64,000 bases of DNA from Dehalococcoidia bacterium (GTDB lineage: Bacteria > Chloroflexota > Dehalococcoidia > Plut-88900), in assembly GCA_965207225.1 (NCBI GenBank), contig CBDBLV010000005.1:672001-736000 (forward strand). Reading direction: 5' to 3'. The number at the start of each line of letters is the position of its first letter. Positions within the stretch are counted from its first letter, which is position 1. Made by a program: the position numbers and the translations under genes. The notes beneath the pieces were generated by a model, which was not told where the DNA came from, did not search any database, and was given only the letters and a program-made list of their open reading frames with translations. Below, piece after piece: positions 28,452 through 33,000 of this stretch.

Positions 28452-29030
28452 GCAGGGATGTCCCTAGTGGGCATCCTCCCCGGCGGACGGGCCACCCACC
28501 CCGAGTTGCGTCGGACCCGTCACCCTTGCCTCCCCTCTCACCCCGACATCCCCCTTCCCATCCCGATGCCCCGCGGGGATCTGCAGCACCCCTCCGTCAC
28601 CCACCTCGTCCCCTGCAATCAGCCACTCGCTTACACGTCATTCCTGCGGAGGCAGAGCCTGCCCCTGCGAAGGCAGGGGAATCCATCCCTCCTAAATGAT
28701 CGCCTGCATCCCGGCAATCCACATCTAACCCCCTCCCCAAACCCACCCTACTCATTGCCACCCTCACACCTACCTGTCTCCTCCCTTGGCAAAGACATAT
28801 CAAAAATGCACTGCATTTTTGATATGTCAATAAAACAGGACGGGCGGGTGGGACCCATAATCATCCCGGGGTGGCGAGGAATTGTGTCCTTTCTTTATCC
28901 CCAGTACTGAACTAGAGGCCCACGTGGGTGCAGCGCACCCACGTGGGCCTCTGTTCTTCTTTCCCCCTCTCCCTTATAGGCCCTAAGGGAGAGGAGGACC
29001 AAGGGGCCGGGGGGATATTCCTCCCAAAAG
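28452..29030 (+). repeat. Composite repeat cluster: REP-like, family D, family F with 23-nt insert, family B copy 2, family A copy
   Basis: Units at 28452-28477, 28559-28582, 28637-28684, 28783-28876 and 28902-29006. The D-B-A order matches 514-920. Confidence 0.85.
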
Positions 29031-29044
29031 CCGCACATTTGCTC

Positions 29045-29073
29045 TTGACACACCTGTCCGACAGCACTATCAT
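29045..29073 (+). promoter_or_regulatory. sigma70 promoter with no clear downstream CDS
   Basis: TTGACA (29045-29050), 17-nt spacer, TATCAT (29068-29073). Confidence 0.7.
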
Positions 29074-29303
29074 ATCCTGCGGTCGAACAAATATCTGAAA
29101 ATAAAAGGAGGAACCAAAAACTTAGGGAAGCCCCCGAGACCCCACCCGAGGACTCAACGCCCTAGCCCATCCCAATACCTCTCGCCTCCCATAGGGAGGC
29201 GACCGGCCAATCGCCCCCCTTGCGAGGCAGGAAGGTTGCGGCACAAGCGAACAGCGCCATCTCCTCATCCCTTCGGGTCCCGTGCCCCTTCCCCACCCAT
29301 CCA

Positions 29304-29614
29304 GGCGATGGAAGGTCCACAACATTAACCGGCACGCCCCTCATATAGGAGCCCTGCCGAAAAACCTCGGGCCTTATGGCCCTTGGAAAAATCTCCCCCG
29401 TCGTTCCCCTCGGAGATTCCCATTAACCCAGCGACGGCAGCGAGAAAACGTGTTCCCCACCCCTCCGAGTGGGTCGAGCCAAACTGAAAAACTGGTGGTA
29501 GAGATGCCCTCTGGCGAGAAGTCCTCGCTTGTCTGCCACGTAACAACAGGAACACGGGGCTGAACCAGGCTGGCCTCCCGCCCCCTGAAACTGAGTCCCG
29601 GACCTTCCATCGCC
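29304..29614 (+). ncRNA. Candidate large structured RNA (or MITE-like folded element), family unrecognised
   Basis: Perfect 15-bp terminal inverted repeat, 7 or more nested helices, A-rich linkers on the + strand and no convincing ORF. Confidence 0.45.
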
Positions 29615-29677
29615 GACCCTCTCCAAAACAGACAAAACGAAAACCGAGACCCCAAAACCGAATAACCGACCTCAACC

Positions 29678-29755
29678 GCCATTCCCGACCCTGATCGGGA
29701 ATCCATCCCACGGGTGCGGCCGCTCATGCTGAGCGTAGTCGAAGTACGAGCGGGG
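29678..29755 (+). repeat. Family F hairpin (ATTCCCGA-ccctga-TCGGGAATCC) and a family C copy
   Basis: Resembles 28637-28684 and 213-273. Confidence 0.75.
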
Positions 29756-29893
29756 AGGCGAGGCTAGAGTGAAGAGCCAAGTGTTGATTTCCCTTAAACA
29801 ATCAAAGCCGTGCTTGAAAACGCAAAACAATCAAAACCCAGCAACTGAAGAAAGCCCTGGCGCATCACTAATCTGTCGGGCCGGTTCGCCCTG

Positions 29894-29922
29894 TTGACAA
29901 CCTTGACAAAGGGTGCTATCAT
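29894..29922 (+). promoter_or_regulatory. sigma70 promoter of rpoBC
   Basis: TTGACA, 17-nt spacer, TGc-TATCAT. Confidence 0.75.
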
Positions 29923-30060
29923 GGCAGGTCGAATGCAGTACTGCGTGGGCCCCTGCCCCATTCCTAGCTCAGCCCCCCCAGCTGACCAATTGTACTCACC
30001 CCTCACCTAGTTTAGGCATAGGTATTTTAATATCCGTTTGCCTTGGAGGTTCTAGCCGCG

Positions 30061-33000
30061 ATGGTCTCCACTCTCCCCGCGCCCGAAGCCCTCGACCGCT
30101 CCCGTGTCTCCTTCGCCAAGCTCCCCGAAGTCCTCGAAATTCCCAGCCTGATCCTCGTCCAGCTGGACTCCTACGAATGGTTCCGTAAAGAAGGCCTCAA
30201 GGAACTCTTCGAAAAGGTCTCGCCTATCTCCGACTACGCCGGCGGCAGGTTCGACCTCCACTTCCTCGACTACGAGTTCCGGGATCCCACCAAGGACATC
30301 GACGCGGACGGCGAACCCCTCCCCTGCCCCTTGGGCAACCCCGACTGCCATAAGAAGCACTTCCCCAAGTACGACGAGAGTGAATGCCGTCTCCGGGACG
30401 CCACTTACGCAGCCCCCCTCTACGTCAAGGTCCAGCTTGTAATCAAGCAGACCGGCGAGGTCAAGGAGCAGGAATTGTTCATGGGGGACATCCCCCTTAT
30501 GACCTCCCAGGGTACCTTCATCATCAACGGCGCCGAGCGTGTGGTAGTCAGCCAGCTCGTCCGGTCCCCCGGCGTCTACTTCACCACGGACACCGACCCC
30601 TCAACCGGCCGTGGCCTCTGCTCCGCCAAGCTCATACCCAACCGGGGCGCTTGGCTCGAACTGGAGACCAGCAACAAGAACCTCATCTCTGCCAAGGTCG
30701 ATAGGAAGAGAAAGATCCCTGTCACTACCCTGCTCCGTTGCATCGGCTACGGGGAAAATAAGTCCATCAGGGAGCTCTTCAAAGACATCGACCTTGATGA
30801 CGAACATTCCTACATTGAAAGGACTCTCGAAAAAGACGGCGGCATCGAGTCCCGTGAAGAAGCCCTTATCGAACTCTACCGCCGCATCCGCCCCGGCGAG
30901 CCCCCCACCGTCGAAAACGCCGAAAACCTCCTCAAGGCCCTCTTCTTCAACCCCCGCCGCTACGACTTCGGGAAGGTTGGCCGTTACAAGGTCAACAAGA
31001 GGCTCGGCACGGAACTCCTCAAGGCCGCAGGCTTGGATGACGATGAAGCTCGAAAAGTCTACCCTGTCGTGGCCCCCGGCATCGTCGATGAAGACGCCGT
31101 CCGCTCCCTCCTTCCCGAAGACAAAGCCGACAAGGTCATCGAAGTCCTCAGCAACCGCGCCCTCAACAATGAAGATCTCCTTGCAATCGTTCGCAAGGTC
31201 ATCCTGGTCAACCAGGGCAAGGACACCGTCGACGACATCGACCACCTGGGCAACCGGCGGGTGAAGGGTGTCGGCGAGCTTATCCAGAACCAGTTCCGCA
31301 TCGGCCTCATGCGTATGGAGCGGGTAGTCCGTGAGCGCATGACCCTTACAGAGGCCGAGACCGCCATGGCCCAGGCCCTGGTCAACGTCCGACCTATCGT
31401 AGCTGCCATAAAGGAATTCTTCGGCGGCTCCCAGCTTTCCCAGTTCATGGACCAGACCAACCCCCTCGCCGAGCTCACCCACAAGCGCCGCCTCTCAACC
31501 CTCGGCCCCGGCGGACTATCCAGGGAACGCGCCGGCTTCGACGTCCGGGACGTCCATCACTCCCACTATGGCCGCATCTGCCCCATCGAAACCCCGGAAG
31601 GCCCCAACATCGGCCTCCTTGGCTCCCTCGCCACCTATTCCATTATCAATGAATACGGTTTCATAGAGACTCCTTACCGCAGAGTGCTAACGGAGGTCCC
31701 CTGCGATTCCGAGGAACTGCTGGGCAAGACCCTCACCGAAAAGGTCATGGGCACCGACGGCAAGGCAATCGCCAAGGCTGGCAGGGTGATTTCCAAGGCC
31801 TTGGCCACCAGAATAAAGAAACTCGAGGGCGTCACCGTCAAGGTCCAGCCCTTCGTTTCTTCAAAGATCGACTACCTGGCTGCCGATGAAGAAGAGCAGT
31901 TTGTCATTGCCCAGGCCAACTCGCCCCTTGACGACCAGAACCAGTTCACCACCGACAGAATCGAAGCCCGTTTCGGTGAGTCCACCAGGATAGAGACCCC
32001 CGAACGCGTCGACTTCATGGACGTGTCCCCCAAGCAGATCGTAAGCGTGTCCACCTCCCTGATTCCCTTCCTGGAACACGACGATGCCAACCGTGCTCTC
32101 ATGGGCTCCAACATGCAAAGGCAGGCCGTCCCCCTCCTCCGCCCCGAGTCCCCCCTTATCGGTACAGGCATGGAGGCCTACGTCGCCAAGGACAGCGGCC
32201 AGGTCTGCGTCGCCGCTGCTGATGGCATCGTCGTGTCCGTCTCCGGGGACGCCATCATGGTCAAGGAAGACGAAGGTGGCCTGCGGGAGTACTCACTTCT
32301 CAAGTTCATGCGTAGCAACCAGGGCACCTGCATAAACCAGAGGCCCATTGTCCGCAAGGGCGACAAGGTGCGTCGCGGCCAGGTCCTCGCCGATAGCTCG
32401 TCCACCGAGAGGGGAGAGCTCGCTCTCGGCCAGAATGTTCTCTGCGCCTTCATGAGTTGGGAGGGCTACAACTACGAAGACGCCATTGTCATCAGCGAAC
32501 GAGTCGTCAGGGAGGACAAGTTCACCTCCATCCATATTGAAAAGCACGAAGTAGAGGCCCGGGACACCAAGCTCGGCCCCGAGGAGATTACCCAGGACAT
32601 ACCCAACGTGGGTGAAGAAAGCCTCGCCGACCTCGACGAGGAAGGCATCATTAGGATCGGTGCCGTGGTCGGCCCCGGCGACATCCTGGTCGGCAAAATC
32701 ACCCCCAAGGGTGAGACCGAGCTCACCGCCGAAGAAAAACTCCTCCGTGCAATCTTCGGCGAAAAGGCACGGGAGGTGAAGGACACCTGCCTCCGTGTCC
32801 CCCACGGCGAACAGGGCAAAGTCATCGACGTTAAGAAATTTACCCGCGACGATAAAGACGAGCTGGCGCCCGGCGTTAACCAGATGGTTCGAGTCTGGGT
32901 AGCCCACACCCGGAAGATCGCAGAGGGCGACAAAATGGCCGGACGCCACGGCAATAAGGGCGTCATAGCCGTCATCCTCCCCGAAGAAGAAATGCCCTTC

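Follow-up and report, generated by a model that had tools for sequence, protein, structure and literature searches.

A dispersed repeat unit with a predicted promoter and exchangeable structured cores upstream of rpoB and other core genes in one Dehalococcoidia genus

The locus and the repeated unit

The window analysed here is a 64-kb stretch of DNA from a Dehalococcoidia bacterium (C5:672001-736000 of the source genome G000, 4.03 Mb in five contigs), and coordinates are positions within it unless a contig is given. Upstream of rpoB it contains a 1.6-kb spacer that a depth profile resolved almost entirely into repeat modules. Within this spacer lies the 311-nt stretch 29304-29614, described in the original prediction as a candidate large non-coding RNA (ncRNA) closed by a perfect helix. 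Our analysis showed that this stretch is an exchangeable core with its two arms, situated inside a longer repeated unit at approximately 29045-29665.

The 311-nt stretch is present in the genome in 14 full-length copies with 90–100% identity, and homology between these copies continues for ~260 nt upstream and ~50 nt downstream of the arms. Because all 14 copies share flanks past both arms, the 311 nt do not constitute the unit; they are neither a self-contained RNA nor a segment whose 15-bp arms form the ends of a mobile element. The shared upstream flank comprises a promoter, a Shine-Dalgarno (SD)-like box and a stem domain, and the shared downstream flank is an A/C-rich tail. Profile searches with the SD-box region, with the segment through the left arm, and with the right arm plus tail found 41, 45 and 38 places, respectively, and their matches assembled into 41 units, 35 of which carry all three modules. 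In total, the genome contains ~47 arm-bounded units with at least 11 core classes, so the proposed link to a repeat system was borne out. The parts follow the same order in every unit: promoter, SD-like box, 5' stem domain, closing helix around the core, and A/C-rich tail (Table 1). Unit length varies between 0.5 and 0.8 kb across copies and is ~0.6 kb in the copy upstream of rpoB.

The promoter that the original prediction had placed upstream of the stretch is present, and sigma-70-like promoters were recognised in all 41 units (29 with 11/12, 2 with 10/12 and 10 with 9/12 consensus matches), representing three sequence types. Transcription of the unit would start at about 29080. In 40 of the 41 units the SD-like box starts 29–36 nt past the end of the promoter −10 element, which corresponds to ~22–29 nt into the predicted transcript; neither ATG, GTG nor TTG was found 5–12 nt downstream of the box, and a genome-wide count of AAGGAGGAWCC gave 40. 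In the 5' stem domain, AGGGAAG (29124-30) appears by eye to lie opposite CTTCCC (29288-93), and GACCC opposite GGGTC. The tail is conserved in 38 places of the genome, and the mean composition of the 55 nt past the right arm over 40 units is A 0.46, C 0.38, G 0.11 and T 0.05.

Table 1. Features of the unit upstream of rpoB and of the adjoining sequence (positions in the window)
Feature	Position	Strand	Basis
Unit promoter, sigma-70-type, TTGACA-17-TATCAT	29045-29073	+	11/12 consensus matches
SD-like box AAGGAGGAACC without start codon	29105-29115	+	Sequence, 40/41 units
5' stem domain, optional hairpin inserts varying by copy	29124-29294	+	Pairing judged by eye
Closing helix, left arm GGCGATGGAAGGTCC	29304-29318	+	Sequence
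Class-1 core, multi-branched interior	29319-29599	+	14 genome copies; 50-copy alignment
Most conserved core segment, two mutually exclusive pairings	29392-29445	+	50-copy alignment, nearly all columns invariant
Hairpin with compensatory changes	29453-29477	+	Columns 187/212 (CG 40, UA 9, UG 1) and 188/211 (UA 21, CG 19, UG 10)
Stem (H8/H9) with G-U, G-C and A-U alternating at three pairs	29495-29539	+	Columns 231/279, 235/275 and 250/269
Closing helix, right arm GGACCTTCCATCGCC	29600-29614	+	Sequence
A/C-rich, G-poor, unstructured tail ending in ..CCCCAAAACCGAATA	29615-29665	+	Base composition; conservation
Different repeat module, ~60 copies	29676-29755	+	Depth 56-63; not part of the unit
Native rpoB promoter, outside the repeat, marking the end of the repeat block	29894-29922	+	11/12 consensus matches

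The rest of the spacer is filled with other modules. At 28913-28953 a GC-rich 18-bp hairpin is followed by a T-run, with a second, 15-bp hairpin at 28962-28998; this hairpin–T-run module is present in ~143 genome copies, the stems of which differ between copies. The gene downstream of it has the same orientation in 96 of 143 cases, the gene upstream in only 62 of 143, and a role as a plain terminator was rejected on the latter count. A perfect 17-bp palindrome at 28794-28828 (GACATATCAAAAATGCA / TGCATTTTTGATATGTC) is part of another repeat with ~25–33 copies. The module at 29676-29755 is of the GTCATTCC...GGAATCC type, variants of which pile up between units and genes.

Core classes, closing helix and fold

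The 40 oriented arm pairs fell into 11 core classes. Class 1, to which the stretch upstream of rpoB belongs, has 14 members of 307–311 nt, and the remaining classes have 6, 4 and 4 members, five have two members each, and two are singletons, with lengths of 198–538 nt. The arms of the present copy are complementary at 15 of 15 positions, as originally described, and are 281 nt apart. The ends pair in all 40 oriented units: the 15 bp are unbroken in 21, and 10 bp and 9 bp are formed in 9 and 10 units, respectively. Past a 1-nt bulge the closing helix goes on in a class-specific manner (GGTCC/GGACC in one group, AGACGC../..GCGTCT in another), and duplex energies range from −31 to −50 kcal/mol over the 40 units. 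Since the outer 9–10 bp are constant while the inner part is class-specific yet paired, the outer half is kept as sequence and the inner half as pairing.

Seven more arm pairs of G000 are located in other flanks (C3:167328, C3:255807, C5:1330718, C5:1737119, C5:1005080, C5:1189888 and C2:179536). They lie ~188 nt behind a promoter of their own, TTTGCA-18-TATACT, and in six of the seven an AAGGAG box is followed by ATG, which may represent a short leader ORF (open reading frame) or its relic. Long open frames running through these seven units were rejected as genes, as they show GC1 = GC2 = GC3 ~0.65 and P/S/R-rich low-complexity translations, compared with GC3 of 0.75–0.9 in real genes of this genome. 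At C1:66844-67900 of G000 another unit is cut after its 5' domain by an insertion with an IstB-like ATPase on the opposite strand (translation read by eye), apparently an IS21-type element.

That the 311-nt stretch is non-coding and strongly structured is supported by several analyses. Three ORFs of 93, 128 and 117 aa overlap the stretch, and protein coding was rejected: none has a Pfam match and 1–2-nt indels between copies break every frame, in line with the absence of a credible ORF noted before. The plus strand folds with a minimum free energy of −126.7 kcal/mol, and none of 100 dinucleotide shuffles, which average −96.4 ± 5.3 kcal/mol, folds as well (z −5.74); the minus strand reaches z −3.85, with 1 of 100 shuffles as good. 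A search with Rfam 15 (4227 models) gave no match at gathering scores in the whole window and nothing even at E ≤ 10 inside 29304-29614, consistent with the earlier statement that RNase P, tmRNA, SRP, 6S and group I/II intron signatures are lacking; T-box models gave no match either. The other core classes likewise matched no Rfam family, the only hits being tRNAs elsewhere and sub-threshold hairpin noise.

We evaluated the fold of class 1 on an alignment of 50 full copies from seven genomes (14 from G000 and 36 from six sister genomes; four partial-core loci were left out). All ten nested helices of the original prediction can form in the present copy, with one G-U pair each in H1, H8 and H9, and two of them fail in most copies. 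The first pair of the CCGGC/GCTGG helix is retained in 4 of 50 copies, and the long-range helix CGTGTTCC/GGAACACG is paired in 60.6% of cells. The linker CATTAACC does occur twice as described, with the first occurrence variable among copies. Taken as a whole, that fold pairs 90.8% of cells and shows covariation no better than shuffles (217 of 500 reach its score). The RNAalifold consensus has 71 pairs, a free energy of −91.1 kcal/mol and 98.9% of cells paired; it contains 31 both-side-changed cells versus 4.3 ± 3.9 in shuffles (0 of 500 reach this value), a contrast that the kinship of the copies overstates.

The segment 29392-29445 can pair in two ways. In the first, a local hairpin ATCTCC/GGAGAT, paired in 90% of cells, is combined with CTGCCG/CGGCAG; in the second, which RNAalifold chose, 29392-29405 forms a long helix with 29430-29445. 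A first strand count gave 196 G-U versus 26 A-C cells, seemingly in favour of the plus strand.

Perfect 15-bp inverted repeats around ~280 bp just upstream of genes are also the layout expected of an invertible DNA switch, in which a recombinase would flip the core between the arms, and a flipped core would put terminators behind the promoter and shut off read-through. On the minus strand several core hairpins are followed by T-runs, which are the A-rich linkers of the plus strand (29369-29540), and the site 29382-29369 passes a terminator scan; such terminator-like sites are what this explanation would need. None of ~53 class-1 copies in seven genomes, however, has its core flipped relative to its flanks, no strand-changing joint was listed among the contigs of four sequencing runs that match the locus, and other core classes lack the A-rich linkers. 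We therefore regard inversion as highly improbable.

Position relative to genes and history of the loci

Gene positions were taken from crude gene calls. In 36 of 40 cases the unit and the next downstream gene point the same way, whereas 25 of 41 upstream genes are divergent. The downstream proteins are mutually unrelated, only 3 of 40 being alike, at 24–30% identity, with diverse Pfam families. They include RpoB, NusA, PNPase (pnp), RecA, GyrB, LeuRS (leuS) and a class-I Glu/Gln-tRNA synthetase, as well as MnmA, RibF, Def, FolD, Lgt, KatG, MoaA, a type-V FBPase and various metabolic enzymes.

Three of these loci were compared with those of sister species of the same genus. At rpoB, the native promoter and 5' untranslated region (UTR) are conserved in nine of nine species. 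In the five more distant ones the spacer is compact, free of repeats and without a unit, and the four closest ones carry a unit whose 3' end meets the native −35 element, with a different core or promoter type in each. The module at 29676-29755 is found between tail and rpoB promoter only in G000 and G008 and is absent there in G007 and G005. At nusA, the native promoter is conserved in six of six species, of which two have an upstream tRNA gene and no unit and four have a unit ending at the −35 element; the core is of class 1 in three of these and of a different class in the fourth. At recA, the site is empty in G005, which has a native TTGACA-17-TATACT promoter. In G000 a stretch of ~135 nt with the native promoter has been replaced, with no duplication, by a class-3 unit and three other modules, all of the GTCATTCC...GGAATCC type. 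The unit promoter is there the sole sigma-70-like site on the recA strand in 1250 nt, and no terminator-like site was found on that strand over the same distance. In G008 and G007 recA has yet other cores. A riboswitch or other ligand-sensing leader was rejected in view of the 11 core classes before unrelated genes and of cores that differ at the same gene between sister species.

Side observations were made at the same loci. The rpoB promoter is followed by a ~140-nt 5' UTR (29894-30060 together), the sequence of which is conserved in nine species and which may be a regulatory leader of its own. The nusA 5' UTR contains GTGGG..CCCAC followed by 7–8 T between promoter and start codon in six species (L002, L313-L317), which looks like an attenuator. 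Gene order breaks exactly at repeat-filled spacers (rpoB loci L120-L128; L232-L236): the four closest species have a different gene upstream of rpoB than the five more distant ones, and in G007 the genes that flank another unit (L232-L236) are split.

The distribution of the unit is confined to the genus. A 571-nt query matched eight of eight other genomes of the genus and none of three other genera of the family or of 29 other families. Counts of a 14-nt arm motif in the nine genus members were 43, 40, 21, 54, 39, 36, 31, 8 and 32, compared with 0–3 in each of 392 other genomes of the class, 74 of which had at least one match; a reversed-pattern control was near zero. Among metagenome contigs, 75 contained the arm motif, and a paired right arm was present in only five, all from one record set. 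A phage origin was rejected, the single viral-contig match to an 18-nt arm motif lacking the right arm and being a chance match.

A multi-copy element restricted to one genus, with 90–97% identity within a genome, could be selfish DNA: a non-autonomous mobile or recombining element, comparable to miniature inverted-repeat transposable elements (MITEs), REP or BOX sequences, in which the hairpins would matter as DNA, with the promoter merely carried along and the RNA functionless. The mosaic of optional modules, the turnover of cores at orthologous sites and the synteny breaks beside units are as this explanation would have it, as are the good folding of both strands and outer arms conserved by sequence rather than by compensation. 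Set against these are arms that lie inside the repeated unit and the absence of target-site duplication; as stated earlier, no direct repeats were found at the arms, and none at the outer limits of the unit. No autonomous element with the same ends was found in G000 either: every arm pair is 204–553 nt apart and other sites with one mismatch are single and in unrelated sequence, so an insertion sequence sharing the ends, which would have made the stretch an ordinary MITE, was not encountered. Because no arm pair exceeds 553 nt, no transposase gene is bracketed by arms in this genome. Co-orientation of 36 of 40 downstream genes and the repeated −35 junction further point to selection or targeting, and one hairpin does show compensatory changes. 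We consider selfish DNA quite unlikely, and a classical MITE was rejected outright, given the internal inverted repeat, the lack of target-site duplication and the lack of an autonomous partner in G000.

Whether the transcript of a unit would reach the gene depends on the sequence between them. A strict promoter match is located within 100 nt past the tail in 11 of 37 units, at offsets of 10, 11, 17, 41, 41, 42, 42, 43, 43, 70 and 77 nt. Among 32 co-oriented cases, the tail-to-gene interval contains a promoter in 13, a hairpin–T-run without a recognised promoter in nine, and neither in ten; these gaps are underestimated because they were measured to the longest ORF. In the 44 nt past the tail, no hairpin better than shuffles was found in 12 of 12 units (z −1.7 to +1.3), and a terminator hairpin just after the tail was not supported.

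These intervals bear directly on the explanation that the units are ~40–50 paralogous stand-alone ncRNA genes with promoters of their own, whose transcripts would terminate either at the tail through Rho or at the hairpin–T-run module. The RNA would then act in trans or as a scaffold, and the siting of units would merely reflect tolerance for a strong rightward promoter. A promoter of its own in 41 of 41 units fits this well, as do the rut-like composition of the tail (C 0.38, G 0.11) in a genome with Rho, the nine of 32 units followed by a hairpin–T-run without a recognised promoter before the gene, and the native promoters that persist right behind the unit at rpoB and nusA. The central segment, invariant in 50 copies from seven genomes, is likewise what would be expected of a protein- or RNA-binding site. 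By contrast, recA in G000 has no other promoter in 1250 nt, all 12 tested 3' segments are without a significant hairpin, and the hairpin–T-run module is not placed like a terminator (upstream gene co-oriented in 62 of 143). On balance we find independent ncRNA genes doubtful, although they retain an appreciable chance.

Interpretation and relation to known systems

The reading we favour, tentatively and at a little less than an even chance, is that the unit is a promoter-bearing structured leader or distal transcription module that has spread by recombination through one Dehalococcoidia genus. Its own promoter would drive rightward transcription of a second, more distal unit, and the transcript would extend into the gene to form a long structured leader, which at recA would be the only transcript. 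Read-through is expected because an intrinsic terminator is lacking ahead of the gene in most copies. Attack at the 5' end of the RNA would be hindered by the nearby SD box, occupied by a 30S subunit, and by the strong closing helix, and the unstructured C-rich, G-poor tail would serve as a ribosome landing site or as a Rho entry site setting how much transcription reaches the gene. Recombination among copies, and not transposase action on the 15-bp arms, would account for the multiplication of units and the swapping of cores. Different cores are found at orthologous sites of sister species.

The predicted protection is compatible with the RNA-decay machinery of the organism. G000, with an estimated completeness of 92%, encodes RNase J, RNase Y, RNase III and Rho, the last with a score over the cut-off, and RNase E/G was not found in it. 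For Bacilli lacking RNase E, a review describes how entire transcripts are stabilised by a strong SD that has no start codon and by an occluded 5' end (PMC3997798). The unit has the sequence hallmarks of such a STAB-SD, with AAGGAGG near the predicted 5' end, no start codon and an RNase-J organism as host, from which stabilisation is predicted. Rho termination is predicted in the same way, from a tail with C 0.38 versus G 0.11 over 55 nt and the presence of Rho.

Several observations weigh against the favoured reading. Large, diverse and highly structured cores are needless for mere promoter donation. Rho could act on the C-rich, G-poor tail and end the RNA there, and promoters in 13 and hairpin–T-runs in nine of the 32 intervals mean that the unit transcript may not get as far as the gene. 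The promoters were recognised solely by their match to the consensus. Sequencing runs with a signal comprised two metatranscriptomes with small shares and others of unknown kind; in the contigs of four of these, which give no starts, ends or strand, well-fitting RNA-library contigs covered only 29866-30127, the rpoB 5' UTR, and the contig behind a 41-nt match at 29577-29617 is of another core class, a pattern that does not bear on transcription of the unit. The evidence for an RNA structure is qualified as well: the modest covariation signal, already inflated by kinship, comes mostly from one hairpin at 29453-29477, and the arm variant GGATGG, common among copies, leaves an uncompensated U-U mismatch. 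The minus-strand consensus fold reaches −84.7 kcal/mol with 74 pairs, compared with −91.1 kcal/mol on the plus strand, and among the 39 pairs common to the folds of both strands G-U pairs number 20 on the plus and 8 on the minus strand. With the minus fold nearly as good and the difference at shared pairs small, the strand is assigned from the promoter and not from the pairs.

A more far-reaching form of the idea, which we consider unlikely, is that the units constitute a new class of large RNA, with ~40 paralogous 0.5–0.8-kb transcripts per genome built on a common scaffold of 5' SD box, stem domain, invariant closing helix and A/C tail with swappable structured cores of 180–540 nt. They would have been planted at housekeeping −35 boxes by promoter-targeted insertion, and the invariant segment 29392-29445, through its two exclusive pairings, would act as a switch for distal transcription into rpoB, nusA, recA and others. 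If so, this class would form a genus-wide RNA control layer over core genes.

Dispersed intergenic repeats with some of these properties are known. Correia elements are 100–155-bp MITEs with terminal inverted repeats and a target duplication that lie between genes, provide adjacent genes with promoters and form part of their transcripts. The unit differs in that its inverted repeat is internal, no duplication is present, and its length is four to six times greater. BOX, ERIC and REP/BIME sequences are intergenic mosaics of optional hairpin modules in many copies per genome, with units of tens to ~200 bp and no fixed promoter-to-tail order. The unit shares with them the optional hairpin modules and the high copy number and differs in its fixed order from promoter to tail.

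The closest parallel is with putative mobile promoters, reportedly described by Matus-Garcia, Nijveen and van Passel in 2012. According to a commentary, these are highly similar, promoter-bearing non-coding sequences before unrelated genes in one genome, most of them without an Rfam match and with a mode of movement that is not known (PMC3575422); Correia elements of Neisseria are named there among promoter-bearing repeats (PMC3575422). The unit resembles them in its predicted promoter and in its lack of an Rfam match, and near-identical sequence was found here before non-paralogous genes. The putative mobile promoters were defined on 100-nt windows and occur mostly as pairs (PMC3575422), unlike the unit, which measures 0.5–0.8 kb, reaches ~40 or more copies per genome, has a fixed order of parts and exchangeable structured cores, and is found genus-wide.

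The predicted leader also resembles the 5' mRNA stabilisers of RNase-J organisms, namely the STAB-SD of cryIIIA and the ermC and hbs leaders, in combining a strong 5' SD without a start codon with a structured 5' region (PMC3997798). Those stabilisers are leaders of single genes (PMC3997798), whereas here the box belongs to a dispersed repeat and stabilisation is a prediction. With HEARO/IscB-associated RNA, OLE, GOLLD and ROOL the unit has in common a size of hundreds of nucleotides and many helices, and with HEARO also many copies per genome. It differs from them in that no core class has an Rfam 15 match, no nuclease or transposase gene is associated with it, and ordinary housekeeping genes lie downstream. 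A weak literature search found no description of this repeat family, and the lists of the mobile-promoter study may include relatives.

For annotation, the ~47 units and the other repeat modules account for much of the long intergenic DNA in these genomes. The repeated −35 junction suggests either promoter targeting or strong selection on position, neither of which, to our knowledge, has been described for such elements. If the favoured reading is true, the unit would represent a spread of regulatory DNA through genomes on an unusually large and orderly scale, with its structured part exchanged between loci and species, and a natural counterpart of the promoter–stabiliser–insulator cassettes of synthetic biology. 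In this uncultured, host-associated Dehalococcoidia genus, one repeat family would then supply or double the promoter and 5' leader of dozens of core genes, including those for RNA polymerase beta, NusA, RecA, gyrase B, PNPase and aminoacyl-tRNA synthetases.

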